Notes under the pieces: generated by a model | What the model was told of the DNA's origin: nothing | Database searches by the model: none | What the model saw: only the letters and a program-made list of their open reading frames with translations | Assembly (NCBI GenBank): GCA_048265185.1 | Contig: JBLXBZ010000010.1 | Location: 30,510 to 54,509 of the forward strand | Reading direction: 5' to 3' | Length of the DNA stretch: 24,000 bases | From: Stappiaceae bacterium | Lineage (GTDB): Bacteria; Pseudomonadota; Alphaproteobacteria; Rhizobiales; Stappiaceae | Translations under genes and position numbers: made by a program | Part shown: in pieces, positions 1 to 24,000 of the stretch | How positions within the stretch are numbered: the first letter of the stretch is position 1 | Layout of the letters: the number at the start of each line of letters is the position of its first letter

Positions 1-222
1 CCGAGAGCGGTTTGCGCAGCGTGCGAGATTTCTTCCGCATGCTGGCGGATGAATTTCGCCCCAAATCATAGGGGGCGAGGGAATGAGCTGGCCGCAGGCG
101 AATTGGCGTCGGCGACCTTGCTTATTCCATTAAAGTTTTTCCAGCTTGGTTGCCCGTTTTCCGGGCGTTCGTTAAACTGTTTGCAAAGGCAAGCTTTGAA
201 GGCCGCTTGGAAATCCATTCAG

Positions 223-1323: not shown

Positions 1324-1524
1324 GGGTTCCTCGGTTCAATGGTCTGCTATGTTGATGGCGCGAAGTTTGATCTGGCGAATCGGCGCGATAGCGGCAGTCT
1401 CAAGCTGAAGATGTTTCATCTACCCCGGCGCCGTTTGGCGGCTGATGAATGCCCTTTCAAGGCAAGGCCGCAGAATCAAGGTGTTTAACCAGAGACGTAT
1501 CCACCAAATGCTGGTCTGGACCTT

Positions 1525-2364: not shown

Positions 2365-2425
2365 TTAACTCCCCGGTGACAAACGCGCATCTTCAGCCAT
2401 GCGGCGCTCTCTGCAAGAGGGAATG

Positions 2426-5099: not shown

Positions 5100-5338
5100 G
5101 GGAGGCTCCGTGTTTTATAAGTCGAGCAGCCAGCGCAATCCCGTTTTACGTTTAGCTCGAACGTCGGAGCGAGGTCTCATGCTGCGTTTGACGTTTCTTT
5201 CATGTCAAACCGCAAAATGACTGCGTTAACGGGCGAGTTGACTGTTCCCGCTCAAGAAGTAGAGTGCATCTTGATAACGGATTTTGATACAGCGTTTCAA
5301 GTATAAAAACGACGTTTCATATTTTGGCGGGATTACAC

Positions 5339-6079: not shown

Positions 6080-6172
6080 GCGTGATATCTGCCGTTGAGG
6101 CAAAAAATGAAATAGTATAGTTGATAGTGAAACGTTCGCAGTGGCGCGGCGCTCAGCTAGGTGCGGTTTTTC

Positions 6173-7534: not shown

Positions 7535-7619
7535 TGAAATGCCGTTGTGTTTAATGAAACGAATCGATAGAATCCGATTCTAGTGACGTCTTTAGACGTT
7601 TTGCAGGAGTGGGAAATCT

Positions 7620-8342
7620 ATGACAAAGAAGCTTGTAGTCGTCAGCGCCCATGTTGGTGATTTCGTTTGGCGCTGCGGCGGCGCGATCGCGCTGCACGTT
7701 AAGGCAGGATACGAAGCTACAATCATTTGTCTGGCCTTCGGTGAACGGGGCGAATCCGCTCGTTTGTTTCAGGAGCCGGGAATGACCGCCGCCAGAGCGC
7801 GTGAAATTCGCCGCAGGGAAGCGCTCAGCGCCGCTGCGGAATTGGGCGCTAAAATCATATTCCTGGAAGGTCAGGACTATATGCTGCGCGTTGATGACGT
7901 CATGCTGCACGAGGCGGCGAAAATTCTACGTCAGACGCAGCCTGAGTTCATTCTGACCCATGCGGCTCATGACCCTTCCAATCTTGATCATGTAACGGCG
8001 CATCGCTTCGCGTTGGAGGCGCGGATGGTGGCGCAAGCCCATGGGCATGAGGACGGGGAGCAAGTTCTCGGAGCGCCGCAGGTCTACTGTTTCGAGCCCC
8101 ATCAAGCGGAACTATGCAAGTTCGTTCCTGACACGCTTATCGATATTTCCGAGGTTTGGGAGACCAAGCTCGCGGCTATGCACCGCCTGGCTGGTCAGAA
8201 AAAGCTTTGGTCTTACTACGAGAACATGGCTCTTCAGCGCGGCGCTGTGTCAAAGCGCCGGCAAAAGGGAGGGAGTGATGGGCCGGTTTATGCCGAAGCT
8301 TATCAGCGGATATTCCCATCGGTGGTTTCGCTGTTGGGGTGA
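7620..8342 (+). CDS. PIG-L/LmbE-family deacetylase-type metal hydrolase
   Basis: 240-aa ORF. The N-terminal VVVSAHVGDFVWRCGGAIA and the later THAAHDPSNLDHVTAH blocks resemble the PIG-L family metal-binding motifs (H-x-D-D and H-x-D-H). GGAG-type RBS upstream (gcaggagtgggaaatct ATG). Confidence 0.78.
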   Translation: MTKKLVVVSAHVGDFVWRCGGAIALHVKAGYEATIICLAFGERGESARLFQEPGMTAARAREIRRREALSAAAELGAKIIFLEGQDYMLRVDDVMLHEAAKILRQTQPEFILTHAAHDPSNLDHVTAHRFALEARMVAQAHGHEDGEQVLGAPQVYCFEPHQAELCKFVPDTLIDISEVWETKLAAMHRLAGQKKLWSYYENMALQRGAVSKRRQKGGSDGPVYAEAYQRIFPSVVSLLG

Positions 8343-8402
8343 GCCGGTCAACGTCGGCTTTGACCGATTTAAACGCCCTATTAGGGTACTAAGGGAGTGA
8401 AA

Positions 8403-9350
8403 ATGTCAAAATTCAAAAAATTTCTCGCGGCTTGCGCCGTTGCGCTGACCGTATCGCCGGCGATGGCGGATGAATGGCCAAGCCAGCCGATCCGTTTGAT
8501 CGTTCCGTTTTCGGCAGGTGGTCCGGCTGATATCGTCGCGCGCGAGCTGGGTAAGAGGATGGGCGATTATCTCGGCCAGCCCGTTATCGTCGAGAACATG
8601 ACCGGCGCCGGCGGCGTGATCGCCGCGCGCCATGTGATCGGGTCTAAGCCTGATGGTTACACCGTGTTTTTCCCCGCCGCCGGCAGCATAGCGGTTCGTC
8701 CGCAAATCGACGGACTGGAGGAGATCGTTGAACAATTGCGACCCGTGGCGGTGGTTTCAACCTCCGCTCATGTGATGGTGGTCAATGCGGAAAGCGACTT
8801 TCACAGCGTCGCTGACCTGATTTCCTACGCCAAGGAGCATCCAGGGGAGCTGAACTATGGATCCGCCGGCGCTGGCGCGGTGGCTCATTTGGGCATGGCG
8901 CGTTTCGCCAACGCCGCCGGTATTGAAATGGAGCATATTCCGTACGGCGGCACGTCGGCTGCGATTGTCGACGTGGCGGGGGGCGCGGTCGACGCCCTGC
9001 TCAGTTCAAAGCCTTCGCTCACCGCCATGATCGACGCAGGCAAGATCCGCGTGATTGGCGTGACTGACGTAGCGCCGGGAACTGACGCTCCTCTGATTTC
9101 TGAAACGGTTGAAGAATTTTCCTATTCGACCTGGTACGGGATGATGGTTCCTGCGGCGACCGATGATAAAATCGTCGAAAAATTGAACGAAGCCGCCGGC
9201 GTCGCCGTTGGCGACGAGGCGTTACAGGAAGAGATGGCTTCTCGCTCAATGACGTTGATGCACACGTCGCCGGAAGAAATGGCGACGATGATCGACAAGG
9301 ACGTTAAGGAGTGGGGCGAGGTGATTGAAAACGTAGGATTGAAGAAGTAG
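8403..9350 (+). CDS. tctC: Tripartite tricarboxylate transporter periplasmic substrate-binding protein TctC (Bug family)
   Basis: Signal peptide (KKFLAACAVALTVSPAMA) followed by the Bug/TctC signature PIRLIVPFSAGGPADIVAREL...VENMTGAGG. The ATG at 8403 sits 5 nt after an AAGGGAG RBS. The ORF-track GTG at 8397 is less likely. Confidence 0.92.
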   Translation: MSKFKKFLAACAVALTVSPAMADEWPSQPIRLIVPFSAGGPADIVARELGKRMGDYLGQPVIVENMTGAGGVIAARHVIGSKPDGYTVFFPAAGSIAVRPQIDGLEEIVEQLRPVAVVSTSAHVMVVNAESDFHSVADLISYAKEHPGELNYGSAGAGAVAHLGMARFANAAGIEMEHIPYGGTSAAIVDVAGGAVDALLSSKPSLTAMIDAGKIRVIGVTDVAPGTDAPLISETVEEFSYSTWYGMMVPAATDDKIVEKLNEAAGVAVGDEALQEEMASRSMTLMHTSPEEMATMIDKDVKEWGEVIENVGLKK

Positions 9351-9375
9351 CCTTTTTCCTATGATTGAAGCGCTG

Positions 9376-9406
9376 AAAGGCCCGGATATTTTGTCCGGGC
9401 CTTTTT
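9376..9406 (+). terminator. Rho-independent terminator downstream of tctC
   Basis: Perfect 11-bp stem AAAGGCCCGGA (9376-9386) / TCCGGGCCTTT (9394-9404) with a 7-nt loop, running into a T-tract. It lies 26 nt after the tctC stop. Confidence 0.75.
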
Positions 9407-9591
9407 GCGTGGTGGATCTGTGTCCAGATGCTTGAGTCGCTTTATGCGGTTTATTTTTCTTTAATAAAATCAAATATTTAATTTTTTAAATCGACGCCTG
9501 AAGGCGAGATGAAAACTTTCCTGAATCCATTCAGCTCGCTTTAATCCGCATTTCTTCAAGAATATCGGCCATTTCGAATTGCTCCGTCAAA

Positions 9592-9615
9592 TTATCTGCA
9601 TGTGCATGCAAATAT
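9592..9615. promoter_or_regulatory. 24-bp palindromic box A upstream of the SMR operon (candidate MarR operator)
   Basis: TTATCTGCATGTGCATGCAAATAT has the dyad TATnTGCATG-nn-CATGCAnATA, with 9 of 12 positions self-complementary. It shares a 15-bp identical core with box B and 19 of 22 positions with box C. Confidence 0.5.
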
Positions 9616-9636
9616 ATTGACGAATAGCTCTGTTTT

Positions 9637-9660
9637 TATTATGTATGTGCATGCAAATAA
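9637..9660. promoter_or_regulatory. Box B, second copy of the same motif upstream of the SMR operon
   Basis: The core ATGTGCATGCAAATA (9645-9659) is identical to 9600-9614, 45 bp downstream of box A. The left half-site is weaker. It lies 114 nt upstream of the SMR start. Confidence 0.45.
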
Positions 9661-9773
9661 TTGGGCGAGCGATTTCGACAAATCCTGGCATTGGCGGCGG
9701 TCGTCGCCATTGGCGACAAATAATCCGCAGGCAATTGCGCTTCAAAGGCAACCTGTGACGAAGGGAAATTATT

Positions 9774-10094
9774 ATGAGTTGGTTATATCTTGGAATTGCC
9801 GTGATCTTCGAGATCGCGGTTGCGATCAGCGCTGGAAATGCAAAGGGTTTCACGCACCTAGGGTGGACTATCGTTACTCTCGTCAGTGGAGCGATCGGCA
9901 CCTTTTTTCTCAGTCTTGCGCTTCTGACCTTTGACGTTGGCGTGGGCTACGCCATCTGGACCTCGGTTGCGGGCGTCGGGATCGTCATCTTGAGCACGTT
10001 ATTCTTCGGGCAGCGGTTAAACTGGAGGAAGGGGCTTGGGATGGTTGTCGTTATCGGGGGCGTTGTCGGTCTGCGCCTTAGCGGCGCGGCGTAG
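9774..10094 (+). CDS. Small multidrug resistance (SMR/EmrE-type) transporter subunit 1
   Basis: 106-aa four-TM ORF with the essential TM1 glutamate (IAVIFEIAVA) and the SMR block VGVGYAIWTSVAGVG. Confidence 0.85.
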   Translation: MSWLYLGIAVIFEIAVAISAGNAKGFTHLGWTIVTLVSGAIGTFFLSLALLTFDVGVGYAIWTSVAGVGIVILSTLFFGQRLNWRKGLGMVVVIGGVVGLRLSGAA

Positions 10095-10190
10095 AGAAGT
10101 GCTGTTTTATACAACTCCCACTTGACCGGAAAGGAACATGATTTGACCACAACGGATGAAAAGCTTCCAAGAAACGGGCGCGCATGGAGC

Positions 10191-10520
10191 ATGTTGATGC
10201 TCGCAAGCGTTTTTGAAATCGGCTATGCGCTCAGCGTCGGAAGCAGTCAGGCGTTTACAGTTTTGACTTGGTCAGCGGCCGCTTTGGTGTTCTTCCTGCT
10301 TACGCTTTATTTCCTTAGCGCCGCCTTGCGCACCATCGACGTGGGGATAGGATATGCCGTATGGGCTGGCATTGGTTCTGTCGGCGCGGTTGTTTTCGGG
10401 AGCGTCTTGCTTGATCAGCCGCTTACGCTGGTTCAGGCTTTTTGGCTGGCGATCATAATCGCCGGCGTCGTCTGGTTGAAGCTTGCCGATAGCCCCAAGC
10501 TTCAAGGGAAAGTTTTATAA
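10191..10520 (+). CDS. SMR transporter subunit 2 (SugE/Gdx-like; paired SMR partner)
   Basis: Four-TM ORF with the TM1 glutamate (ASVFEIGYAL) and VGIGYAVWAGIGSVGAVVFG. The ATG at 10191 gives a typical 109 aa. The ORF-track TTG at 10122 would add a 23-aa hydrophilic extension. It lies 27-96 nt after subunit 1. Confidence 0.8.
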   Translation: MLMLASVFEIGYALSVGSSQAFTVLTWSAAALVFFLLTLYFLSAALRTIDVGIGYAVWAGIGSVGAVVFGSVLLDQPLTLVQAFWLAIIIAGVVWLKLADSPKLQGKVL

Positions 10521-10551
10521 ACCGGCGACATTTTTAGACATATAAAGCACA

Positions 10552-10583
10552 GCTCGCGGAGAAGGTTTGTCTTTTCCGTGAGC
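10552..10583 (+). terminator. Possible terminator hairpin after the SMR pair
   Basis: 13-bp stem GCTCGCGGAGAAG / CTTTTCCGTGAGC (two G-U pairs) with a 6-nt loop, 32 nt after the SMR stop. No clear U-tract follows, so this is weak. Confidence 0.3.
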
Positions 10584-10694
10584 CATTTAGCGGCGCCGGC
10601 GGCCCGTCTTTCGTTTGTTGCCGGCGATAAACTCCGCCTCAGGGGGGCGTCTATTCGGCGAGGTCAGTGTGTCTGTAAATTTTCTCTAGAGATT

Positions 10695-10718
10695 ATATCT
10701 GCATGGGCATACACATAT
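10695..10718. promoter_or_regulatory. Box C, the same palindromic motif upstream of marR-family gene (candidate autoregulatory operator)
   Basis: ATATCTGCATGGGCATACACATAT has dyad arms matching at 9 of 11 positions. It lies 46 nt upstream of the MarR start codon and aligns with box A as ATTAT..CTGCATGkGCATrCAmATAT. Confidence 0.5.
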
Positions 10719-10763
10719 GGATGAAATAGCGCCGCCGATTGCTCAAAGGAGTTCGCGTTCATC

Positions 10764-11174
10764 ATGCCAAAGATAAGCGATTCATGGTTTGGGTTGGTTC
10801 ACTTGGTGGGGAACGTCGAATCGGAGCTGGGAAAGGTTCTGCAAGAGCGGCACGGTCTTGGTTTGTCGGAGTATCGTGCGCTTCAAATATTATCGCGATC
10901 ACGGAATAACGAACTTCGAATGCAAGAGTTGGCCGCGCATCTATCTTTGAACCAGAGCTCAGTTTCGCGAATGGTCGAGCGTTTGGAGCGTAGTGGCCTT
11001 ACCGTTCGCGATACTTGCCCTAATGACAAGAGGGGAGTTTACACAGTTCTTACAGATCAGGGGAAGGCGCGTCTCGAAAGCGCTGAGGACGACTATCAGA
11101 CAGCCTTGTCCGCAGCTCTTAAGGATCGCGGTTGCGAGGACTTGTTGTCGGCAAATTTTATCAAGACATGCTAG
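10764..11174 (+). CDS. MarR-family transcriptional regulator
   Basis: 136-aa ORF with a typical MarR wHTH (LSEYRALQILSRS...LRMQELAAHLSLNQSSVSRMVERLERSGLTVR...DKRGVYTVLTDQGKARLE). Confidence 0.9.
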   Translation: MPKISDSWFGLVHLVGNVESELGKVLQERHGLGLSEYRALQILSRSRNNELRMQELAAHLSLNQSSVSRMVERLERSGLTVRDTCPNDKRGVYTVLTDQGKARLESAEDDYQTALSAALKDRGCEDLLSANFIKTC

Positions 11175-11251
11175 GAGCGGCGTTTATATTGTGATTGTAG
11201 CGCATTCGTGGATGTCGTGCGACTATATAGTCGCCGTTTTGAGGATGGCGT

Positions 11252-11572
11252 TCATAAGGAACCATCATAGTCGGGACTCAGCAGATTGGCGTGCCGCTGC
11301 TTGATCGTCCGTTTCTTCTTGCGAGCCTTGCTCGGCGCCTCCCGCAGTCAGGCTGACAGCTTGTCGGCAAAGGCATGGAGTTTTCTGGGACGTTCGGGAA
11401 GCTTGAATGTGGGGGCAACTGTATCGGCACGCAGATACTTGTGCACTCTATGCTGGGGCAATCCGGTGCGATGGGAGATCTCCCGGCTCGAAAACCGATC
11501 ACGAAAACGCCAACGCCTGATAACGCTCTACAACGCTATGTCTATCACGGCTTCATCCCCTGCGGGAATCAT
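11252..11572 (-). pseudogene. IS21-family transposase (istA) 5' fragment, truncated and carrying two in-frame nonsense codons
   Basis: One minus-strand frame reads MIPAGDEAVIDIAL*SVIRRWRFRDRFSSREISHRTGLPQHRVHKYLRADTVAPTFKLPERPRKLHAFADKLSA*LREAPSKARKKKRTIKQRHANLLSPDYDGSL. This resembles the IstA N-terminal HTH and the following RP.KLD.F...L..WL....RK.RRT block. The stops are a TAG at 11528-11530 and a TGA at 11348-11350, the latter where W is expected. Only about 105 of roughly 500 codons are present. Confidence 0.7.
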
Positions 11573-11921
11573 GTAGGGGGCATGGGGAAATTCTCGGTGA
11601 AAACTAAGAAACCGGCATAAGTAGGCGATCCTCCCTGCATAAGGTTGTATTTTTGTCAAGCACAATTTCAGTAAAGCCACTGCAAATGGTTGCCGCCCGC
11701 CTGCAATAAGCATATCATGCATACACATTTCTTCTTTGCGTGTTTGTGTCTGATATTCAAATATGACCAACTAATTCAAAGAGTTAATGTTTATTTAGGT
11801 TGTAGTTTTCATGGTGAATATTTTGAATCAGCCTCAAAAAATCTAGATCATTCCACTCCAGTGACGCTCCAGCTTGGAGTGCTATGATCTACTGAATTCT
11901 GTATAATCCCCCCAAAAAAAT

Positions 11922-14900
11922 GTGATGAGTGCCGTGCCAAAAATTGTCCGACGTAGTCCCATTTTTTTTCCGCCTATAATTAATCGGCTCGGATTGTGGC
12001 TAGTGTCAGCACTTCTCGTCATCACCGTGTCGGTGGTGTCCATCGCTGTTTTTAGCGTCGACAAGCTTTATTCCGATCAGAGGTTGCGCGGCGCTGAGCG
12101 ACTGTCGGAAGGCGCCGCCATTATCTCCAATCGCATCGATCCGGTGGTCTCAGACTTGCGTTTCATCGCGCGCAGCAACTCCATGATGCATGCTGCTAGC
12201 TCGAAAAGCACATTTACTATCAATAGATTAGAGGCAGATTGGCTCAACCTTGCTGAAGTGAAAGGCGCTTACGACCAAATTCGCTGGATTGACGAAAACG
12301 GCATGGAGCGTGTCAGGGTCAATTTTAGAAATGGAGAAGCGGAGATTGTCGCGCAGGATCAACTGCAAAGCAAAGTTGACCGTTATTACTTCCAGAAGAC
12401 AATTACGTTGCAGCAGGGTGAAATCTATGTTTCGCCGCTTGATCTCAATGTGGAAAATGGGGTCATCGAAGAGCCGGCCGTCCCGGTAATTCGCATTTCT
12501 ACGCCTGTTTATAACCGCTCTGGCGCGAGCCGGGGCATCGTTGTCGTCAATTATCTTGCTGGACCATTGCTTGAGCAATTGCGCGCCATTGATCCGGGTA
12601 ATCTTTGGCTTTTGAATGACTTGGGATACTGGTTTTTAAGCCGCGCTCCGGACGCTGAATGGGGGTTTATGTATGGCGATCAAAGCGCGCGACTAGCTGT
12701 CACCGCGCCGGACATCTGGGACGCGGTCACCAAGAGTGAAGCGGGGGAGCTGCGCAATGAAGATGGTTTCTGGCTGTACCGCTGGCTTAAACCCTTCTCT
12801 CTATCTTCCGAACTATATGGTTTGGACGTTAATGGCGCTGATGTCGTGTCACCTCAGTCGGAAAAAATGGCTGATTATCGTTGGCTTTTGGTTATGCAAA
12901 CGCCGAATGACGTTTTGGCGGCGAAAATACGCGAAGTCTGGTTGATCGCTTTCTCGAGTCTCGCGCTTTCATTCGCCGTCATTCTTGTTAGTGGTTGGCG
13001 CATTGCGCGTGCGAACTGGCGGGAAAAAGAAGCTCTCGACAATTTGAAAATCAGCCATGCGTTGCTGGAGGAGAAATCCGAACAGCTGACGGCGGAAGTG
13101 CTGCGCCGCAGCAAGGCGGAGATCAAACTTCGCGGCGCAGTTGAGCTCTACAAGGCTGTGTTGAGAAATTCGGTCGATAGCTTTTTGCTCCTAGACCGTA
13201 ATGGCGAGATCAGGGAAGCCAATGATGCGTTTTGCCAATTGGTGGGGTGCAGCATGGAACAGGTGCTGGGGCGTAATATCAAGGAATTTGGCTTTGATGA
13301 AATCAGCCAGGATCTATCGGGGATGTTCGCCAGCATTGATATTGACCGGCGCGATAGGATTGAAGCCGGGGTGCGCATCAAGGGCGGAGAAGAACTCATC
13401 ATTGAGATGAACCTTGTTTATCTTTATCAGACAGACAATGTCTTTGCTTTCATGCGCAATGTGACGGAACACAAAATCCATATGGGCGAGCTGGAGCGTT
13501 CCGCTTATTATGATGTTCTGACTGGCCTCCCGAACCGCTCCTTGTTGACCGAGCGGATGGCGCAGGCAATATCGTCAACCTCAGGCGAAAGTGGGCTGGT
13601 CGCCATTCTGTTTATCGATCTGGACGGGTTCAAGCAGGTCAATGACGTGCATGGCCACGCCGTTGGTGATGAGGTTCTGATCACGCTGGCCAAAAGGTTT
13701 TTGCGCTGCGTGCGTCCGGTGGATACAGTGGGGCGTTTGGGGGGAGATGAATTTGTCGTCCTTTTGGCGAGTGTCCAGAATGAAGATGCCTGTCTCGCCA
13801 TTGTGGAAGAGCTTTTAGCACAGGCGGCGAAGCCGGTGTCTTCCGGCGGCGGCGAGCACAGCGTCACCGCAAGCATCGGCGTGGCCTATTTCCGGCCCGG
13901 TGACGTGGCCGATCCTGACCTTTTGCTCAGGCGCGCCGATCATGCCATGTATTCCGCCAAAAGCAGGGGGCGGAACTGCTATTATCTGGCGGAAGATGCT
14001 TTTGATGATGACCGGGATGCGGCGCAGCAACGGATCAAGGATTTGCGCCATGCGCTTGAAAACGACGAGTTCGAGCTTCATTATCAGCCTAAGGTGAACG
14101 CCGTCACGGGGCAAACCGTTGGCGCAGAGGCGCTTATCCGCTGGCGCCATCCTGAAAAGGGCTTGCTTTATCCCGCCGCCTTTTTGCCGATGATCGAAGG
14201 CCATCCGATTTATTTTGAAATCGCGTCATGGGTCATGCGTTCCGCCATTAGTCAAATTTCTGAGTGGAACAAGCGCGGCAAGACTGTTTGTGTTAGTATT
14301 AATGTATCCGTCAATGAACTCATGGATCCAGACTTCGCCGATAGACTTCGCTGCGCTCTGGGGGATTTTCCAGAGGTGCGACCGGAGCAAATGGAGCTTG
14401 AGGTGATTGAAACCAACGAGCTTGGCAGTAATGATCTGGCTAAGATCAATATCGCCGCTTGCAAGGCCATTGGCGTTTCGATCTCCATTGATGATTTCGG
14501 AACGGGATATTCTTCACTGTCGCAGCTTAGAAATCTTTCGATCGACACGATCAAGATTGATCGTAATTTTGTTGTAAACGCCACCGAAGCCCCAGATGAT
14601 CTGGCGATTCTGATCGCGATTAACTCGCTTGCTCGCGCCTTGGACAATGAAGCGGTGGCTGAAGGCGTGGAAACGGAAGAGCAGGGGAGGTTGCTGTTGC
14701 TTCTGGGCTGCCGTGTGATGCAAGGCTATTTCTTCGCTCGCCCGATGCCGGCGGCGGATTTTTTCAATTGGCCCGGCTTTCAAAAGCGCCCGGAAAGTTG
14801 GGAGGGGGTAAAACGCATCAGATCTCATAATCACGCCTTTTTAACAGCCATTGTTTTTCACAAAGCGTGGCGTGCGCGCCTTCTGGCTATGTTGAACGGC

Positions 14901-15206
14901 GCTGTGAGCGCCTCCAGCGACCCAGTTGATTGGCGCGCCTGCCAGTTTGGTCGCTGGTTGGCGTCTGAAGATTATGCCCGTTTTGCGCAATTGCCGGAAA
15001 TGAAGGAGATCGTTAAATTACACGATGATCTCCATGAAGTGGCTGACAAGGCGTGCGAAGCTCATAAGTTAGGAGAATTGGGGGAAGTTGAGCTTCAGAA
15101 AGAACGTCTTGGCGAGCTTAGCTCAGCTCTGGAGACGCTGGGCTATACTGTATTGCGTAATGCTGATGACATGAACCTGCCCGGAGAAAGTGGAGGGATT
15201 TTCTGA
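11922..15206 (+). CDS. Membrane-bound sensor diguanylate cyclase/phosphodiesterase: TM, periplasmic Cache-like domain, TM, coiled coil, PAS, GGDEF, EAL, C-terminal CZB zinc-binding domain
   Basis: 1094-aa ORF. Two TM segments (about aa 22-45 and 337-358) flank a roughly 290-aa extracytoplasmic domain. The GGDEF motif is intact at 13740-13754 with an RxxD I-site (RPVD) exactly 5 residues upstream. The EAL domain has EALIRW (E at 14127), DDFGTGYSS, KIDRNF, EGVETEEQ and QGYFFARP. The C-terminal segment matches the CZB pattern H-x2-W-x23-C-x-F-G-x-W-x21-H-x3-H (His at 14859). The start could be GTG 11922 or ATG 11925. Confidence 0.92.
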   Translation: MMSAVPKIVRRSPIFFPPIINRLGLWLVSALLVITVSVVSIAVFSVDKLYSDQRLRGAERLSEGAAIISNRIDPVVSDLRFIARSNSMMHAASSKSTFTINRLEADWLNLAEVKGAYDQIRWIDENGMERVRVNFRNGEAEIVAQDQLQSKVDRYYFQKTITLQQGEIYVSPLDLNVENGVIEEPAVPVIRISTPVYNRSGASRGIVVVNYLAGPLLEQLRAIDPGNLWLLNDLGYWFLSRAPDAEWGFMYGDQSARLAVTAPDIWDAVTKSEAGELRNEDGFWLYRWLKPFSLSSELYGLDVNGADVVSPQSEKMADYRWLLVMQTPNDVLAAKIREVWLIAFSSLALSFAVILVSGWRIARANWREKEALDNLKISHALLEEKSEQLTAEVLRRSKAEIKLRGAVELYKAVLRNSVDSFLLLDRNGEIREANDAFCQLVGCSMEQVLGRNIKEFGFDEISQDLSGMFASIDIDRRDRIEAGVRIKGGEELIIEMNLVYLYQTDNVFAFMRNVTEHKIHMGELERSAYYDVLTGLPNRSLLTERMAQAISSTSGESGLVAILFIDLDGFKQVNDVHGHAVGDEVLITLAKRFLRCVRPVDTVGRLGGDEFVVLLASVQNEDACLAIVEELLAQAAKPVSSGGGEHSVTASIGVAYFRPGDVADPDLLLRRADHAMYSAKSRGRNCYYLAEDAFDDDRDAAQQRIKDLRHALENDEFELHYQPKVNAVTGQTVGAEALIRWRHPEKGLLYPAAFLPMIEGHPIYFEIASWVMRSAISQISEWNKRGKTVCVSINVSVNELMDPDFADRLRCALGDFPEVRPEQMELEVIETNELGSNDLAKINIAACKAIGVSISIDDFGTGYSSLSQLRNLSIDTIKIDRNFVVNATEAPDDLAILIAINSLARALDNEAVAEGVETEEQGRLLLLLGCRVMQGYFFARPMPAADFFNWPGFQKRPESWEGVKRIRSHNHAFLTAIVFHKAWRARLLAMLNGAVSASSDPVDWRACQFGRWLASEDYARFAQLPEMKEIVKLHDDLHEVADKACEAHKLGELGEVELQKERLGELSSALETLGYTVLRNADDMNLPGESGGIF

Positions 15207-16032: not shown

Positions 16033-17325
16033 ATGCCAAAAATTGCAAAAGAGCTTTCTGCGCTTGAAGTGAAGAATTTGCGTCATCCCGGCGTAGGACG
16101 CAATGTCTGTTTTCCGGTGGGAGGAGTAGCAGGTCTGTATTTACAGATAACGCCCAGCGCGGGGCGTTCTTGGCTGTTGCGCACAACCATTGCCAACAAG
16201 CGGCGCGAAATTGGTCTCGGTGGTTATCCTGATATAACTCTAAGCCAAGCCCGTGAGCGCGCACGCGAGACGAAGGCGCAAGTGCTTGCTGGGATCGATC
16301 CTGTCGCCCAGCGCAAGGCCTTCAAAGCGGCGCTTGTGGCCGATCAACGACGCGGAATGCTCTTTAGCGAAGCGGTGGATCATTATCTGGCCGCTAAGCT
16401 CGACGCCTTCAAAAATGATAAACACCGAGCGCAATGGCGAAGCACGCTGGAAACTTACGCCACGCCAGAGCTGGGTAAGATGCTCGTGCAGGATATCAAC
16501 GTGCAAGACGTGCTGCGCGTTCTCGAACCGATCTGGCACAGCAAAACTGAAACCGCATCACGCCTGCGCGGGCGCATTGAGTCAGTCCTATCGTGGGCCA
16601 CGGTTGCTGGCCATCGGTGAGGGGATAATCCGGCGCGCTGGGCGGGCAATCTCAAAGAGCTCCTGCCCGCGCCCGCCAAGCTCAAGGGCGACGCGAACCA
16701 ACCCGCCTTGCAGATTGACGATGCGCCGCTTTGGTTAGAGGATTTACGCAAGCGTGGGGGCTTTAGCAATAGAGCTCTGGAATTTGCAGCGTTGACCGCA
16801 TCCCGCTCGCAAGAAGTGCGCGGCGCACGTTGGGATGAGATTGATCTGGATAATGCGTTGTGGACCATCCCAAGCAGCCGCATGAAGATGAACCGCGAAC
16901 ATCGTGTGCCGCTATCAGGCGATGTAATGACGCTATTGCGTGCATTGCCACGGCTAGAAGGTAGCTCTCTGGTGTTTCCGGCGGCTCGAGGTGGGCAATT
17001 GTCAGACATGGCCCTCAGCGCCGCCATGAAGCGCCTGCACGCCGCCAAGAAAGCCCAAGATGGGGCGGGATATATAGATCGCATAAGCAAACGCCCGGCA
17101 GTGCCGCATGGCCTGCGATCAACCTTTCGCGATTGGATCGCAGAACGAACGCACTTTCCCGGCGATATGGCGGAGGTTGCCTTGGCGCATAAAGTCGGGA
17201 ATGCTGTTGAAGCGGCCTATCGGCGTGGCGACATGGTGGAAAAACGGCGTTTGATGATGAACTCTTGGGCGGATTACCTGACTGGCAAAACGCAGGCTGG
17301 GGCTAATGTGGTGAGAATCGGATGA
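16033..17325 (+). pseudogene. P4-type tyrosine recombinase/integrase (DUF4102 N-terminal arm-binding domain) interrupted by one in-frame TGA
   Basis: ORFs 16033-16620 and 16708-17325 are in the same frame and are separated only by the TGA at 16618-16620 (...WATVAGHR*GDNPARWAGNLKELLP...). The N-terminus LSALEVKNL...GLYLQITPSGRSWLLR...REIGLGGYPDITLSQARE is the P4-integrase DUF4102 signature. The catalytic R (LTASRSQEV), H-x-x-R (HGLRSTFRDW) and Y (AYRRGD) are all present downstream of the stop. Confidence 0.85.
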
Positions 17326-18125: not shown

Positions 18126-18347
18126 CCATCCCCCTTTGCTCTTGAAACCTACCCCCTGATTAACCCATTGAACCTAAAGATATCTATAGTTGAAATGAGA
18201 CTTTCATTTAATCCCGCGCGTATGAACGGGAGGCTAATCATATGCGCAAAATAGGGTTAGTTATTTGAACCGAGCCCGCTATTTCATGCGGCATTGAACG
18301 CCTCATATTCCAATCATTCGCAACGCCAACTGATTGGAGCAAACAGC

Positions 18348-18524
18348 ATGGCGCAAACTTATCTTTCCGATCTTCAACTCGCCGCCCGCTATGGCGTTCA
18401 CCGATCGACGCCCTGGCGCTGGGCCAAGGTGGATCCGACCTTTCCCAAGCCTGTGACGTTATCGCGGGGGTGTACCCGTTGGAGTTTGTCCGAACTGGAA
18501 CTCTGGGAAGAAGCGCGGCGTTAG
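18348..18524 (+). CDS. AlpA-family phage/island regulatory protein (excisionase-like HTH)
   Basis: The 58-aa product MAQTYLSDLQLAARYGVHRSTPWRWAKVDPTFPKPVTLSRGCTRWSLSELELWEEARR fits the AlpA/Xis MerR-like HTH pattern (...S..T.YR....G.FP.P..L..R...W...E...W). GGAG lies 8 nt upstream of the ATG at 18348. Confidence 0.8.
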   Translation: MAQTYLSDLQLAARYGVHRSTPWRWAKVDPTFPKPVTLSRGCTRWSLSELELWEEARR

Positions 18525-18619: not shown

Positions 18620-18841
18620 ATGGATATGGCTAAACATGGCTCGGGCCATGCCCGTTATTCTATTGTCAAATTGAACGCCGTTCATGCCGAAACTTGGGAT
18701 AGAAAGCGTGGTCGTTGCGCGACTGTTTGCAACATCCACATAGGGCGTGAAGATTGCGCAGTTATCACCAATTTCAGCATGCCGGCCCGCTATGTCCTGC
18801 GACGCACAATTGCGCAGGCTTCGAAATGGGGGGTGGTGTAA
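18620..18841 (+). CDS. Small hypothetical protein (73 aa), possibly translationally coupled to the downstream HTH gene
   Basis: A strong RBS AAAGGAG lies 2 nt before the ATG at 18620, and the TAA stop overlaps the next ATG (TAATG at 18839-18843). No homology is recognised. A competing antisense ORF (18551-18850) lacks these signals. Confidence 0.4.
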   Translation: MDMAKHGSGHARYSIVKLNAVHAETWDRKRGRCATVCNIHIGREDCAVITNFSMPARYVLRRTIAQASKWGVV

Positions 18842-19284
18842 TGGCCCCAAAAAAATTCAAACGCGGAGGCGGTAAATTCGTGCAGCTTCCACATGCGCTG
18901 ATTGGCGAGTGGGAGCGCCTGAGGGTAAGCACCGGCGCGCGAGCCCTGCATATCGCATTAATCCATCGGTTTAATGGCCATAACAATGGACGCGTTTACC
19001 TGCCCAGCCGTGAAGCCGCCAAGGCGCTGGGCGTGTCGCGCAATACCGTGAGTGTTTATATTCATGAGCTTATAACCTGCGGCTTCATCGTCCAGACAAA
19101 GGGCGCGGCGCTAGGTGTGGAGGGCAAAGGACGCGCCGCCGAATGGCGCTTGACGCATTTACCCTGTGATGGAAAGTCGCCCACTGCGGAATATCGAAAA
19201 ACAGAAACCCGGAGCAAAAACCGTGCATCCCCTGCACGGAAACCATGCCAAGGGCAGAAAAAGAACGAAAATTCCTTGGCTTAA
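18841..19284 (+). CDS. Helix-turn-helix DNA-binding protein (island replication/regulation-type)
   Basis: The 147-aa product has an HTH core (SREAAKALGVSRNTVSVYIHELITCGFI) and a basic C-terminal tail. A G-rich RBS precedes the ATG at 18841. The ORF-track start at 18754 is less likely. Confidence 0.65.
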   Translation: MAPKKFKRGGGKFVQLPHALIGEWERLRVSTGARALHIALIHRFNGHNNGRVYLPSREAAKALGVSRNTVSVYIHELITCGFIVQTKGAALGVEGKGRAAEWRLTHLPCDGKSPTAEYRKTETRSKNRASPARKPCQGQKKNENSLA

Positions 19285-19666: not shown

Positions 19667-22420
19667 ATGAACGCTGTTGAGATCGAAGAAGCCATATCGG
19701 CATTGGCTGAACTTCCTTTCGACGCTGAAGAATTTCCGTTCGCCTTCCTTGAAGCCTTTGGCAATAAAGCCACGACGATCAAACGTTTGCGCAGTGGATC
19801 ATCCAACAAATCTGACCACGGCGGGGTTCTTCAAACCAATAATATCCATTTGAAGGTTTGCGAGACAGGAGCGGTCACTGCCACTCTTGCACAGCTCAAG
19901 CAAAGTCCCGCCACCACCAAGGCCAAGGCGAAATTCGTGCTGGCCACCGATGGCAGAGACCTTGAGGCGGAAGACCTGAACACCGGCGAGACGATTGCCT
20001 GCGCCTATACTGACTTTCCCGATCACTTTGGCTTTTTCCTGCCACTGGCTGGCATTTCCACCGTCAAGCAAATCCGCGAAAGCGCCTTTGACATCAAGGC
20101 GACCGGACGGCTCAATCGGCTGTATGTGGAGTTGCTGAAAGACAACCCTGAATGGGGCCGTGCGGAACGCCGTCACGATTTGAACCACTTCATGGCGCGG
20201 TTAATCTTCTGCTTCTTTGCTGAAGACACCGATATTTTGAATAGCGAGGATCTGTTTACCGCCACCATTAGTCAAATGTCGGGCCGCGATAGCGCCAACA
20301 CCCATGAGGTGATCAGCGAAATTTTCCGCGCCATGAATACGCCGATTGCCGAACGGGCAAAGGCAAATCTGCCGCGTTGGGCCGATGCGTTTCCTTATGT
20401 CAATGGCGGCCTGTTTTCAGGCAGTACAGACGTGCCGCGCTTTTCCAAGATTACGCGCTCTTACCTGATTCATATCGGCAGTCTCGACTGGACAAAGATC
20501 AATCCCGATATCTTTGGTTCAATGATTCAAGCGGTTGCCGATGATGAAGAGCGCGGCGCGCTTGGCATGCACTACACCTCCGTGCCCAATATTCTGAAAG
20601 TGCTGAACCCGCTGTTTCTCGATGATTTGCGCGAGAAGCTGGAAGAGGCAGGCGACAATCGGCGCAAACTCAAGAACCTGCGGGAACGGATGGCCAAGAT
20701 CAGGGTATTCGATCCGGCCTGCGGATCGGGCAACTTTCTTGTCATTGCCTATAAGGAAATGCGCGCCATAGAAGCGGAGATCAACCGTCGCCGTGGTGAA
20801 AGCGCCCGCAAGACGGATATTCCGCTGACCAACTATCGCGGGATCGAGCTGCGTGACTTCCCCGCCGAGATTGCCCGTCTGGCGCTGATTATTGCCGAAT
20901 ATCAGTGCGATGTGACCTGGCGCGGTCAAAAGCAGGCTTTGGCCGAGTTCCTGCCGCTCAATGCTGAAAACTGGATCACCTGCGGCAACGCTTTGAGGCT
21001 CGACTGGCTGAGCATTTGTCCTCCGACTGGGACAGGCGTGAAGCACCATGCCGATGATTTGTTCATGTCGCCCGTCGATCAAGCCGAGATTGACTTCGAG
21101 AACGAAGGTGGAGAGACTTATATTTGTGGCAATCCGCCCTATCTCGGCTCAACATGGCAGAGCAAAGAGCAAAAGGAAGATCTGGGCCGCATTTTCGAAG
21201 GCCGGGTCAAAAGCTGGAAGTCGCTTGATTATGTTGCCGGCTGGTTTATGAAAGCCGCTGATTACGGGCAGCACACGCCAACCGTTTCGGCCTTTGTGTC
21301 CACCAACTCCATTTGTCAGGGACAGCAGGTGCCAATCCTGTGGCCGGAGATATTCAACACCGGGCACAAAATCGCCTTCGCCCATACATCGTTCAAATGG
21401 AACAATCTCGCCAGTCACAATGCAGGCGTCACCGTGGTGATTGTTGCAATTGCGCGTGGCACGCTTAAAGCACGACGGCTGTTTTCCGAAACCAAAGCCA
21501 ATGGCGCAGAAGAGCGGCAGGTTGAAAATATCAATGCCTATCTCGTAGCCGGGCCGAATGTTGATCTCCAAAAGTCTACACAACCAATCAATGGTGTAAC
21601 CGCTATGGATCGAGGCGAAAGCGCGGTCGACGGCGGTGGTTTGCTGCTATCAGGAGATGAAGCCGAAGCGATACGAATCGAAAATGCGACAGCGTATAAA
21701 AAATTCGTTAGGCCTTATATCGGCTCAGAGGAGCTTATTAATGGAAAAACCAGATTTGCTCTGTGGATTAAGGACACAGACGCAGTCAAAGCGGCGGATA
21801 CGGCACTTATCGCAGCTCGTCTTGTTCAAGTGAAAAACATGCGAGCCACCAGCAAAAAGTCACAAACGCAAGATGCGGCGGCATGGCCGCATCGTTTCGG
21901 TGAAGTCCGACACAAGCCATCTGATTACACGATCGTGGTCCCACGGGTGAGTTCTGAGAACCGCGATTTTCTGCCCGTTGGCATCGTTAAGGGCGGCACA
22001 ATTATCGGCGACCGAAACTTCGCCCTCTATGATGCCCCGCTATGGAACATGGCGTTGATCGCCTCGCGCCTGCACTGGGTCTGGATCGGAACGGTCTGTG
22101 TGCGAATGCGAACCGACTTTAGCTATTCCAACACTCTCGGCTGGAACACCTTTCCTGTTCCCAAACTCACTGAAAAAAACCGAGAAGACCTGACCCGATG
22201 CGCCGAAGACATCCTTCTGGCGCGCGAGGCGCATTTCCCGGCCACCATTGCCGATCTCTATGACCCGGAAAAAATGCCCGAAAACCTGCGCGCCGCCCAC
22301 GCCCGCAACGACGAGACCCTTGAGCGCATCTATATCGGCCGCCGCTTCAAAAACGACACGGAACGGCTGGAAAAACTGTTCGACATGTACACCAAGATGA
22401 CGACGAAGGTGAGCGCATGA
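19667..22420 (+). CDS. MmeI-family (type IIL/IIG-like) N6-adenine DNA methyltransferase fusion protein; N-terminal nuclease motif apparently degenerate
   Basis: 917 aa, against about 919 for MmeI. Matches to the MmeI sequence as I recall it run along the whole length. These include FMARLIFCFFAEDT (helical spacer), NPDIFGSMIQ...GMHYTSVPNILKV, SAM motif I VFDPACGSGNFL (D at 20711), catalytic motif IV NPPY (21131-21142), FVSTNSICQGQQV..LWP and the C-terminal LYDPEKMPENLRAAH...LFDMYTKMT. Confidence 0.9.
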   Translation: MNAVEIEEAISALAELPFDAEEFPFAFLEAFGNKATTIKRLRSGSSNKSDHGGVLQTNNIHLKVCETGAVTATLAQLKQSPATTKAKAKFVLATDGRDLEAEDLNTGETIACAYTDFPDHFGFFLPLAGISTVKQIRESAFDIKATGRLNRLYVELLKDNPEWGRAERRHDLNHFMARLIFCFFAEDTDILNSEDLFTATISQMSGRDSANTHEVISEIFRAMNTPIAERAKANLPRWADAFPYVNGGLFSGSTDVPRFSKITRSYLIHIGSLDWTKINPDIFGSMIQAVADDEERGALGMHYTSVPNILKVLNPLFLDDLREKLEEAGDNRRKLKNLRERMAKIRVFDPACGSGNFLVIAYKEMRAIEAEINRRRGESARKTDIPLTNYRGIELRDFPAEIARLALIIAEYQCDVTWRGQKQALAEFLPLNAENWITCGNALRLDWLSICPPTGTGVKHHADDLFMSPVDQAEIDFENEGGETYICGNPPYLGSTWQSKEQKEDLGRIFEGRVKSWKSLDYVAGWFMKAADYGQHTPTVSAFVSTNSICQGQQVPILWPEIFNTGHKIAFAHTSFKWNNLASHNAGVTVVIVAIARGTLKARRLFSETKANGAEERQVENINAYLVAGPNVDLQKSTQPINGVTAMDRGESAVDGGGLLLSGDEAEAIRIENATAYKKFVRPYIGSEELINGKTRFALWIKDTDAVKAADTALIAARLVQVKNMRATSKKSQTQDAAAWPHRFGEVRHKPSDYTIVVPRVSSENRDFLPVGIVKGGTIIGDRNFALYDAPLWNMALIASRLHWVWIGTVCVRMRTDFSYSNTLGWNTFPVPKLTEKNREDLTRCAEDILLAREAHFPATIADLYDPEKMPENLRAAHARNDETLERIYIGRRFKNDTERLEKLFDMYTKMTTKVSA

Positions 22421-23889
22421 CGCCTGACCCTGTGATGAGCGCGCAGCGCACCCGCAAACTGATCGATGATCTGCGCGCCAAGCCTGCGGAAACGTCGTGG
22501 ATCGAGTTCAAGGAAAATAACGTCGGCGGGCCGCTGATCGGCAAGCTGATCTCGGCCCTGTCCAACGCCGCGCGTCTGGCCGATCAACATTTCGCCTATG
22601 TCGTATGGGGCGTGCGCGACAGCGACCACGCGGTTGTCGGCACCACTTTTGAACCTACGGTGAAAAAAGAGAAAGGCCAGCCGCTGGAATTTTGGATCGC
22701 CAATCACCTCCAGCCAAGCATCGAGCTCCGGTTTGAAGAAGTGGATCACGATGGCCAGCGCCTGATCCTGTTGACGATCCCCGCTGCCGCCACAGCGCCC
22801 GTTGAATTTGACCGCACCGCCTATCTGCGCATTGGCAGCGCCACGCCCCGCCTGTCCGACCACCCCGAGCGCCTACGTGCCCTCTGGGCAAAGCTACAGC
22901 CCTATGCGTGGGAGACAGGCATCGCCGCGCAGTTTCTGACCGGTGATGAGGTTTTGGCGCGGTTGGACTATGCCAACTATTTCGATCTGACTGCACAACC
23001 CTTACCTGATAACAGACAAGGGATATTCGATAAGCTGTTGGCGGATCGCCTGATCCAGAAAGACGTGAGTGACCATTGGAACATCACCAATCTCGGCGCG
23101 ATCCTCTATGCCAAAAAGTTGGCCGATTTTGGCCCTTCGGTAGAGCGTAAAGGTGTTCGCTTTGTAGCCTATGTAGGCACCGGCCGTGCAGATGATGTGG
23201 TCCATCGCCATGACGGCCAGCGCGGCTATGCAGCAGGATTTCAAGGGTTGGTGAATTACATCGACGGCCTTTTGCCGCGTAACGAGCTTATCGGAAAAGC
23301 CTTCCGCGAGGAACGCCCGCTTTACCCCTCAATCTCGATCCGCGAAGTAATCGCCAATGCGTTGATCCACCAAGACATGACGATCACCGGAGCCGGGCCG
23401 CTGATCGAACTATTCAGCGACCGGATGGAGATTACCAACCCCGGCGCGCCATTGGTCAGTCCGGATCGTTTTCTGGATTCGCCCCCACGATCACGCAACG
23501 AGGCCCTTGCATCACTGATGCGGCGTATGAAGCTGTGTGAAGAACAAGGCACCGGTATCGACAAGGTGATCACGGCAGTCGAGCTCCACCAGTTACCTCC
23601 ACCGGACTTCCGCAGGGAAGGCGACGCCGTGCGTGTCGTTCTGTTTGCCCCGCGTCGCTTTGCCGATATGACGCCAGAAGAGGCTGTGCGGGCCTGTTTC
23701 CAGCACGCCGCGCTGAAATATATAGGCGGCCAGAAGATGACGAACGCCACGCTGCGCGAACGGCTCGGCATCGACGATCAGAACGCTGCGCAGGCGTCAC
23801 GGGTGATCCGCACGACATTGGATGCCGGCTTGATCCGGCCAGCCGATTCAGAGCGCCCGCGTGCCGGCTATGTACCTGCATGGGCGTGA
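22417..23889 (+). CDS. AlbA_2 (Schlafen-like) domain protein with HATPase_c_4-like and C-terminal winged-HTH regions (COG2865-type 'ATP-binding protein/putative transcriptional regulator')
   Basis: 490-aa ORF. Its N-terminus ETSWIEFKEN...ISALSNA...YVVWGV fits the AlbA_2 pattern (E..EfK). The middle block IREVIANALIHQDM...DRMEITNPG...SRNEALASLMRRMKLCEEQGTGIDKV fits HATPase_c_4. The C-terminus TNATLRERLGI...ASRVI is an HTH. Its start overlaps the methyltransferase stop (ATGA at 22417-22420). Confidence 0.85.
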   Translation: MTPDPVMSAQRTRKLIDDLRAKPAETSWIEFKENNVGGPLIGKLISALSNAARLADQHFAYVVWGVRDSDHAVVGTTFEPTVKKEKGQPLEFWIANHLQPSIELRFEEVDHDGQRLILLTIPAAATAPVEFDRTAYLRIGSATPRLSDHPERLRALWAKLQPYAWETGIAAQFLTGDEVLARLDYANYFDLTAQPLPDNRQGIFDKLLADRLIQKDVSDHWNITNLGAILYAKKLADFGPSVERKGVRFVAYVGTGRADDVVHRHDGQRGYAAGFQGLVNYIDGLLPRNELIGKAFREERPLYPSISIREVIANALIHQDMTITGAGPLIELFSDRMEITNPGAPLVSPDRFLDSPPRSRNEALASLMRRMKLCEEQGTGIDKVITAVELHQLPPPDFRREGDAVRVVLFAPRRFADMTPEEAVRACFQHAALKYIGGQKMTNATLRERLGIDDQNAAQASRVIRTTLDAGLIRPADSERPRAGYVPAWA

Positions 23890-24000
23890 GCGGGAAAAGA
23901 TTTGATCGGGTTTTGATTGAGGCGATGCCGGTAGGAGGGTTTGGTTTGAAAAAAAGTTATAAATCAATGTTTTATGATGGTTTCAGAGTGGAGAGATTAC

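Follow-up and report, generated by a model that had tools for sequence, protein, structure and literature searches.

The stretch of DNA analysed here (the window, 24,000 nucleotides (nt) of contig JBLXBZ010000010.1 from a Stappiaceae bacterium) ends in a pair of overlapping open reading frames (ORFs), which encode a 917-aa MmeI-family DNA methyltransferase and a 490-aa Schlafen-like protein with an AlbA_2 domain. An earlier note, drawn up by a model from the letters of the window, had described the pair as a candidate two-gene defence module matching no named system, in which a methyltransferase that has lost its nuclease motif is obliged to work with its co-translated partner. We consider it likely (probability of about 0.8) that the pair is the first half of a restriction-modification (R-M)-like operon of the YeeA/DnmA-YeeB-YeeC type, in which a Schlafen-ATPase protein of the class called Schlatpase rides as a passenger. 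Judged by its relatives, what was taken for a two-gene module almost certainly belongs to a four-gene operon that runs on past the window end, and the missing nuclease function would most likely be supplied by helicase and T5orf172 partners encoded downstream, not by the AlbA_2 protein. The argument rests on the following features.

19667-22420, + strand: YeeA/DnmA-type MmeI-family protein, 917 aa (Pfam, PADLOC and 5HR4 match)
22417-23889, + strand: Schlatpase-HTH protein (pSlfn-HisKinase-HTH, COG2865, 'MloB'), 490 aa (Pfam, motifs, AlphaFold, Foldseek)
23890-24000, + strand: spacer before a putative YeeB-like helicase gene, cut by the window end (alignment with loci L004, L031 and L005)
23902-23919, + strand: first core of a repeat element, TTGATCGGGTTTTGATTG, made of two direct TTGATYG heptamers at a spacing of 11 nt (the window has one exact match)

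Helicase and nuclease genes follow the pair in related loci

Both ORFs have the coordinates given in the earlier note and are strongly supported homologues, chance ORFs being excluded. The methyltransferase stop and the Schlatpase start share a 4-nt ATGA overlap at 22417-22420 (+ strand), as that note had reported, and a Shine-Dalgarno-like AAGGTGAG lies 4-11 nt 5' of the start of the 490-aa gene. For the 490-aa protein, a scan of one genome per species found 323 relatives, the best 80 of which (63-95% identity; loci L004-L083) were analysed; for the methyltransferase, a metagenome scan found at least 570, of which the best 80 (68-80% identity; loci L084-L163) were analysed. Counts of downstream genes in the metagenomic set refer to the 62 methyltransferase loci with at least 2.5 kb of downstream sequence.

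A full MmeI-like gene lies upstream of the Schlatpase gene in 44/80 genome loci, and 8 more, which are cut by a contig end, have a helicase gene downstream. The methyltransferase-Schlatpase-helicase layout is found in 52/80 genome loci and a full T5orf172 gene in 46/80; the helicase is present in all 52 loci with this layout, with T5orf172 after it wherever the contig is long enough. The whole order is seen on one strand in Acidithiobacillus marinus and Paracoccus pantotrophus, namely the MmeI-like gene, the AlbA_2 gene, a helicase gene of ~680 aa with DEAD/ResIII Pfam domains and a last gene of ~395 aa with T5orf172 and MUG113 domains. Seen from the methyltransferase, a helicase gene is downstream in 61/62 metagenomic loci, nearly always followed by T5orf172 where the flank suffices. 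The window stops 111 nt past the stop of the 490-aa gene, and in L004, L031 and L005 the helicase ATG lies ~70 nt past the equivalent of window position 24000. Since this tail is syntenic with the pre-helicase spacer, and given the gene order in relatives, the pair appears to be part of a four-gene operon cut by the window edge, with helicase and nuclease genes predicted from relatives to lie beyond 24000. When the Schlatpase, the helicase, the T5orf172 protein and a 260-aa insert were run against PADLOC and NCBIfam, only weak, sub-threshold matches were returned.

The 917-aa protein is an MmeI-family methyltransferase of the kind lacking PD-ExK

The 917-aa protein consists of an N-terminal domain without PD-ExK, a helical spacer, a gamma-class N6-adenine methyltransferase domain, a target recognition domain (TRD) and a C-terminal domain. 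From end to end it is covered by the five MmeI domains of Pfam, all above cut-off (N, 2.7e-37; hel; Mtase, 5e-120; TRD, 9e-78; C), and residues 17-914 match PDLC03598 (REase_MTase_IIG), the PADLOC model for Type IIG, with 966 bits. The motifs FDPACGSGNFL (residue 348) and NPPY (residue 489), which the earlier reading had taken for intact S-adenosylmethionine-binding and catalytic motifs, are indeed conserved in 117/117 and at least 115/117 of the distinct subfamily members used for residue conservation.

The N-terminal domain differs from that of MmeI, whose catalytic residues are D70, E80 and K82 (Morgan et al. 2009, PMC2731913). A phmmer alignment with the MmeI structure (PDB 5HR4; E 6e-135) starts only at residue 88, and when a 30-sequence profile of the N-terminal 170 residues was used (HMMER), only residues 85-154 aligned, to MmeI 104-173. 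Neither the single sequence nor the profile aligned residues 1-84 with the MmeI catalytic region, and the correspondence of catalytic residues was therefore taken from the positional offset and the published numbering, not from a direct alignment. By this offset D50 is the equivalent of D70 and H61 that of E80, and the position of K82 (residue 63) is variable among the 117 homologues (A in 77, K in 26, L in 8). By this reckoning the canonical ExK nuclease motif is absent from the protein, in agreement with the loss proposed before.

The majority fraction across the 117 homologues is 0.81 in the N-terminal domain and 0.82 in the methyltransferase domain, and it falls to ~0.5 in the TRD against 0.8-0.9 elsewhere. 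A hypervariable TRD beside conserved N-terminal and methyltransferase domains is the pattern expected of a working R-M component that diversifies its specificity. Within methyltransferase residues 1-108 (19667-19990), the polar residues D50, H61 and E102 are invariant and D95 is kept in 116/117; a partner-docking surface and a variant metal site are candidate roles for them.

The 490-aa protein belongs to the Schlatpase class of bacterial Schlafens

Two Pfam domains were found in the 490-aa protein, SLFN_AlbA_2 (PF04326; residues 25-143, 1.8e-14) and HATPase_c_4 (PF13749; residues 325-409, 1.8e-24); searches of Pfam, NCBIfam and PADLOC returned only these, and homology to PrrC or RloC was absent. 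In the AlphaFold model (pLDDT 94.4, pTM 0.87), the C-terminus (~420-490) forms a winged helix, consisting of helices 420-436, 443-450 and 454-469 and then two strands (pLDDT >95), which completes the combination of AlbA_2, HATPase_c_4 and winged helix-turn-helix (HTH) described previously. Foldseek placed the model next to 3LMM over its whole length, then next to the nuclease domains of SLFN14/13/11, and then next to the CA domains of His kinases.

A search for a Schlafen RNase-like active site, which had been suggested as a check, was positive. The protein carries the nuclease motif E25-TSWI-E30-F-K32 and the Schlafen box S46-A-L-S-N50, corresponding to the published signature of Ex4(E/D)xK plus a SAFAN box. 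Conservation was examined in sets of 30 and of 89-91 homologues; in the larger set, which extends to 35% identity, E25 and N50 never vary, while at least 90% of the sequences keep E30, K32 and S46. The literal DxGxG lid is missing, as had been remarked, but the GHKL nucleotide-binding residues are otherwise in place: the N-box (E310, N314) is invariant, and in the NPG (341-343) and GTG (378-380) motifs N341, G343, G378 and G380 are at least 90% conserved (89-91 homologues).

Proteins combining PF04326 and PF13749 have been named for their 'Schlatpase' supradomain, which occurs in 60,692 of 103,533 prokaryotic SLFN proteins; most are small, with or without a C-terminal HTH, and they are exchanged among prokaryotic Argonaute (pAgo), NACHT and R-M contexts (bioRxiv 10.64898/2026.05.29.728809; Nat Microbiol 2026, PMC13056530; Nat Commun 2026, PMC13462974, which has an R-M-associated cluster). 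In another classification, pSlfn-HisKinase-HTH makes up 19.2% of bacterial Schlafens and is the second commonest architecture. Read from its sequence and predicted fold, the 490-aa protein has the architecture and the motifs of this Schlatpase/pSlfn-HisKinase-HTH class.

Among related proteins, tRNA cleavage after activation is described for CbCash, RorSlfn5 and RzAgo; the active site of RzAgo is built by ATP-driven tetramerisation, and its E314A mutant, changed at the N-box Glu, is ATPase-dead. By analogy, the 490-aa protein may be an ATP-dependent tRNase that stays latent and backs up restriction by abortive infection, from a position like that of PrrC in type Ic loci, a proposal to which we give slightly short of an even chance.

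The Schlatpase gene is an optional passenger in a variable slot

The partner of the methyltransferase had been called obligate, and conservation of the pairing in other genomes had been named as the point on which the two-gene idea would turn. From the methyltransferase side the pairing is not conserved: an AlbA_2 homologue lies between the methyltransferase and helicase genes in 0/62 metagenomic loci, and the only metagenomic locus with one in this position has short flanks (L088). The distance from the methyltransferase stop to the helicase start ranges from 39 to ~3000 nt in metagenomic loci; of the 72 loci with both ends in view, 19 have an empty slot and 50 a slot of at least 300 nt. Its cargo falls into ~53 sequence clusters, among them RhuM, Fic/DOC, reverse transcriptase, DUF1016_N and HEPN proteins as well as unknowns, which include families of 255, 278, 294 and 338 aa. 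Whatever it encodes, the first cargo gene usually overlaps the methyltransferase stop by 4 nt. In Schlatpase-bearing operons the same 4-nt overlap as in the window is present in 16/44, and an extra gene or a gap precedes the Schlatpase gene in ~24/44.

The Schlatpase gene also occurs away from this operon. No full methyltransferase, helicase or T5orf172 gene accompanies it in 28/80 genome loci. Two of the loci, L068 and L070, are classical type I loci with the order HsdM-HsdS-Schlatpase-HsdR; the earlier remark that COG2865-type genes are found embedded in R-M loci is borne out. Other Schlatpase loci adjoin housekeeping genes (e.g. UvrD, CTP synthase, RapA, HemY). In L045, L047, L054, L060, L062, L067 and L072 an intact Schlatpase gene stands beside short remnants of a methyltransferase C-terminus and/or a helicase N-terminus; it appears that the Schlatpase gene outlasts the surrounding R-M genes or that cassettes swap via conserved flanks. 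Because 61/62 methyltransferase relatives keep the helicase without an AlbA_2 gene, and because homologues of the 490-aa protein are found in type I loci or alone, the Schlatpase gene is an optional, autonomous passenger in a variable slot between the methyltransferase and helicase genes.

The name 'MloB' was rejected as a characterised function, being a mere locus label from the annotation of Shewanella oneidensis, where mloA is the Fic gene SoFic. As mloA is a Fic gene, the label does suit a passenger that lodges in R-M loci. A further Schlatpase-HTH gene, encoding a protein of 47% identity, was seen in L164 (7539-12206), where it is convergent to a cluster of the cyclic-oligonucleotide-based anti-phage signalling system (CBASS) type (SMODS, two bacHORMA_2, Cap8, AAA ATPase); past its stop this gene has a terminator-like hairpin instead of the heptamer pair described below.

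A phased heptamer element abuts the Schlatpase stop

The first core of the repeat element lies just past the Schlatpase stop, and from relatives the second is expected ~99 nt beyond the first, just past the window end. Paired cores at ~+15 and ~+115 past the stop are found in 78/81 Schlatpase loci, consisting of 54/55 loci with a helicase gene, where the pair lies between the Schlatpase stop and the helicase ATG, and 24/26 without one. Methyltransferase-helicase loci without a Schlatpase gene match the element in 7/71, mostly with 3 mismatches. Conservation is confined to the cores and an A-rich tract with AATCA-N5-TTA near the centre, and this A-rich centre may resemble a site for integration host factor. 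Core-to-core distances are 77, 88-89, 98-101 (53/67), 109-110 and 120 nt, with one of 106 nt; almost all are multiples of ~11, which argues for helical phasing on DNA. The element consists of two cores separated by 7-11 helical turns around an A/T-rich centre.

More distant homologues were examined by a motif-free test, in which direct repeats with at least 16/18 matches were sought in the 260 nt past the stop of 33 homologues (33-68% identity). Such repeats were present in 18% of these, against 0.8% of control windows. In the diverse homologues they all start 0-21 nt past the stop, and almost all have an internal 11-nt period. The heptamer varies by clade (TTGATCG-like, TAACTTG/GTAACTG, TTATTTG), and the predicted start of the recognition helix shifts in step with it (NAAQxS vs S(S/A)(G/A)(S/T)(I/V)S). 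The two-core, 11-nt-phased geometry was observed at 35-48% identity in L166 (2014-2129), L171, L174-L177 and L195, with the heptamers TTATTTG, TAACTTG and GTAACTG tracking the start of the recognition helix. The most economical reading is that the element is the cognate site for the Schlatpase's own winged helix, which probably binds it, with four heptamers for a tetramer.

Several other readings of the repeat were tried and rejected. An RNA, such as the antitoxin RNA of a type III toxin-antitoxin-like system or another non-coding RNA, is disfavoured by the lack of any Rfam match to the element, by inter-core sequence that is not conserved across taxa and by the spacing quantised at ~11 nt. 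A helicase promoter or operator fails as the sole explanation, as the element tracks the Schlatpase gene even without a helicase gene, and a sigma-70 scan of the part of the element within the window gave nothing above shuffled sequences. An extra motif copy at +8764 in Rhodobacterales loci was attributed to chance, being a match with 2-3 mismatches inside a coding ORF, and the other single-mismatch TTGAT-N6-TTGAT matches in the window are at chance level. Expanded arrays also occur: L060 carries a ten-copy tandem array of a 100-nt core-bearing unit directly upstream of the Schlatpase gene (646-1660) and two more copies downstream, and 3' of the Schlatpase gene there are four core copies in L081 and three in L082. 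These arrays are probably expansions by unequal crossover.

The phased 3' element was not found described in the available text of the published Schlatpase/pSlfn accounts (bioRxiv 10.64898/2026.05.29.728809; PMC13056530; PMC13462974). We tentatively suggest, at odds well below even, that the stand-alone Schlatpase-HTH class carries a cognate cis element at its stop and that docking of the ATP-dependent tetramer on the four heptamers, at its own locus, acts as a latency or sensing switch. If this were true, an element inside YeeABC-type or type I operons might tie the activation of the tRNase to the restriction genes, to their state or their expression, giving a PrrC-like guardian made of different parts.

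Genomic island context

The island and defence context proposed for the pair is real, with regulators and an integrase gene upstream on the same strand.

16033-17325, + strand: P4-type tyrosine integrase of the island (Pfam Arm-DNA-bind_3, Phage_int_M and Phage_integrase across two ORF halves)
18294-18524, + strand: AlpA-like island regulator (Pfam)
18754-19284, + strand: HTH_36-like island regulator (Pfam)

In translation the integrase forms one frame with a sole in-frame TGA at 16618-16620 ('...AGHR*GDNPARW...'); the gene has probably decayed to a pseudogene, in which case the island would no longer be mobile. An ORF for a 267-aa protein without assignment is also among the island genes upstream of the pair, and a search of the window for tRNA genes gave none. 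Positions 1-15200 hold housekeeping genes (TctABC, a major facilitator superfamily transporter and a GGDEF-EAL sensor). The sensor (11922-15206, + strand), encoded a little outside the island and without relation to the pair, is a 1094-aa protein in which a periplasmic sensor domain is combined with PAS, GGDEF and EAL domains and, at the C-terminus, a zinc-binding CZB domain.

Proposed mode of action

In the favoured YeeABC-type reading, the MmeI-like protein would recognise an asymmetric site through its hypervariable TRD and methylate one adenine as the self mark. Its motif-less N-terminal domain would dock a superfamily 2 (SF2) helicase (YeeB-like) and a T5orf172/GIY-YIG nuclease (YeeC-like), which once docked would restrict DNA in an ATP-dependent manner, a split version of the type I or type ISP design. 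The Schlatpase would act as an abortive-infection back-up in a PrrC-like position. ATP bound to its GHKL domain would drive oligomerisation and its SLFN domain would cleave tRNA, by analogy with other bacterial Schlafens, and its winged helix would bind the four phased heptamers that abut its own stop.

Alternative explanations

The self-contained, obligately co-translated two-gene module, in which a nuclease-dead methyltransferase and TRD sense or mark DNA and the AlbA_2 protein is effector or checkpoint, can draw on the ATGA overlap, which the window shares with 16 loci of varied taxonomy, on the MmeI-like operon layout of 52/80 of the closest AlbA_2 relatives and on the intact SLFN catalytic motif. 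The neighbourhood counts nonetheless largely refute it, and we regard it as very improbable: those 52 loci all continue into a helicase gene, and into T5orf172 where the contig allows, 61/62 methyltransferase relatives keep helicase and nuclease without AlbA_2, another gene or a gap comes between the pair in ~24/44 loci, and close AlbA_2 homologues live in type I R-M loci or on their own. With it goes the idea that the AlbA_2 protein is the methyltransferase's effector, the helicase and nuclease partners being the likelier source of the nuclease function. Quite unlikely, in our judgement, is that this copy is a relic, with an immobilised island, defunct restriction, a methyltransferase that works as an orphan with an epigenetic role (a proposal made for B. 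subtilis DnmA) and a Schlatpase that persists independently. The in-frame TGA of the integrase, the B. subtilis cluster without restriction or phage phenotype and the intact Schlatpase genes next to decayed methyltransferase and helicase fragments in the loci listed above would fit such a relic, but both window ORFs are intact with all catalytic motifs, the spacer toward the helicase is conserved, the closest relatives keep full four-gene operons and yeeAB is active in Vibrio.

The 490-aa protein could also be mainly a controller resembling the C-proteins of R-M systems, its winged helix on the heptamers timing or limiting the restriction genes after the cargo had split the operon. We think this unlikely, though not negligible. 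It would account for the position of both cores between the Schlatpase stop and the helicase ATG in 54/55 helicase loci, for the 11-nt phasing and A/T-rich centre, which suggest a looped repression complex, and for the co-variation of heptamer and recognition helix. It would leave unexplained why the element is kept in 24/26 loci without a helicase gene, where the orientation of the downstream gene is mixed, and why a simple repressor has invariant SLFN and GHKL catalytic residues that it does not need; moreover, most operons of YeeABC type work without the 490-aa protein, and the portion of the element inside the window shows no conspicuous sigma-70-like promoter. The YeeABC-type operon with a Schlatpase passenger remains the reading that we favour, and several points weigh against it or against its parts. 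The helicase and T5orf172 genes of the source genome itself would lie beyond the window and were not seen; exact look-ups of the two window proteins gave no record, and the 80 genome loci, the best at 95% identity, do not include the source genome. No PADLOC model recognises the Schlatpase, the helicase or the T5orf172 protein, so that a PADLOC check, as had been advised, assigned the 917-aa protein to Type IIG and left the 490-aa protein without a model. The integrase stop and the silent B. subtilis cluster mean that this copy could be a relic; the latter, dnmA-yeeB-yeeC, has no phage or transformation phenotype (PMC7261158, PMC9973331). L066 and L068 share the recognition helix yet have no element. 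No phenotype is demonstrated for stand-alone Slfn-HisKinase(-HTH) proteins, and when seven Slfn systems were assayed in E. coli, protection came from the DUF262 and Ig-like fusions alone.

Implications

The locus is not a new two-gene defence system: its operon type was described in 2009 and its Schlafen-ATPase-HTH class catalogued in 2026. One new observation is the phased heptamer pair that abuts the Schlatpase stop and co-varies with the protein clade. This element offers a concrete handle on the control of the most abundant untested class of bacterial Schlafens. YeeABC-type operons, moreover, have a defined slot between methyltransferase and helicase that exchanges the accessory genes seen in type I loci (Fic, RhuM, HEPN, DUF1016, reverse transcriptase, Schlatpase). 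The frequent survival of an intact Schlatpase gene where the flanking R-M genes have decayed argues for a selective value of its own. That an R-M operon can harbour an RNase gene is known from PrrC (PMC12707154). Of these results, the cargo slot and the phased heptamer element most deserve further study.

Comparison with known systems

The pairing had been described as belonging to no named system, and both of its members have a place in the literature. Morgan et al. 2009 (PMC2731913), whose inclusion criterion for MmeI-type enzymes was the N-terminal PD-ExK residues, divided MmeI homologues into two sets, the second of which (e.g. B. subtilis YeeA) has no PD-ExK, differs from MmeI in the first ~100 residues and 'invariably' has as its neighbours a DEAD helicase (YeeB-like) and a GIY-YIG protein (YeeC-like). 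Endonuclease activity was absent when YeeA or MslORFHP was produced by itself, and it was proposed that the MmeI-like subunit provides specificity and single-strand modification and that its N-terminal domain docks the helicase and the nuclease (PMC2731913). YeeA has since been renamed DnmA, an N6-methyladenine (m6A) methyltransferase acting at GACGAG (PMC7261158, PMC9973331), and yeeAB of Vibrio crassostreae mediates resistance to a phage subclade (bioRxiv 10.1101/2021.05.05.442762). The 917-aa protein resembles YeeA(DnmA) in lacking PD-ExK, in diverging from MmeI over the first ~85-100 residues, in its intact methyltransferase motifs and in its location on an acquired island, and in its relatives genes for a DEAD/ResIII helicase and a T5orf172/GIY-YIG protein come next on that strand. 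The difference is the Schlatpase-HTH gene between methyltransferase and helicase, here and in a clade of relatives, together with the position of the predicted helicase and nuclease genes outside the window. With MmeI itself and the type IIL/IIG enzymes (5HR4) the protein shares the five-domain layout, but it lacks D-X9-E-X-K, an invariant His replacing the Glu and no fixed residue the Lys, and whereas MmeI works alone, relatives of the 917-aa protein are consistently flanked by helicase and nuclease partners. Enzymes of the MmeI kind cut about 20/18 nt away from an asymmetric site.

The 490-aa protein agrees with the Schlatpase class in its PF04326, PF13749 and C-terminal HTH domains, its Ex4ExK motif, SAFAN-like box and N-box Glu and its association with R-M genes; it differs in standing alone, without an Argonaute, Csx15 or Ig-like sensor. 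Compared with R-M C-proteins it is a multi-domain protein of 490 aa and not a small HTH protein, and its repeat element lies downstream instead of forming an operator upstream of its own gene. As a whole, the predicted operon has the ingredients of type ISP (LlaGI/LlaBIII) and type I systems, with an MmeI-like methyltransferase-TRD, an SF2 helicase-like motor and a nuclease, and presumably ATP-dependent restriction, but these reside on separate polypeptides, the nuclease is of GIY-YIG/T5orf172 and not of Mrr/PD-ExK type, and there is no HsdS. The comparison with type I was drawn by Morgan et al. 2009. Like the genes for PrrC and RloC, the anticodon nucleases of type I R-M loci known as 'RM guardians' (PMC12707154), the putative latent RNase gene is lodged inside an R-M operon, with modification genes on one side and restriction genes on the other, and in L068 and L070 the Schlatpase gene between HsdS and HsdR takes the very position of prrC. 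The folds are unrelated, SLFN and GHKL domains standing here where the guardians have PrrC-type ATPase and nuclease domains.

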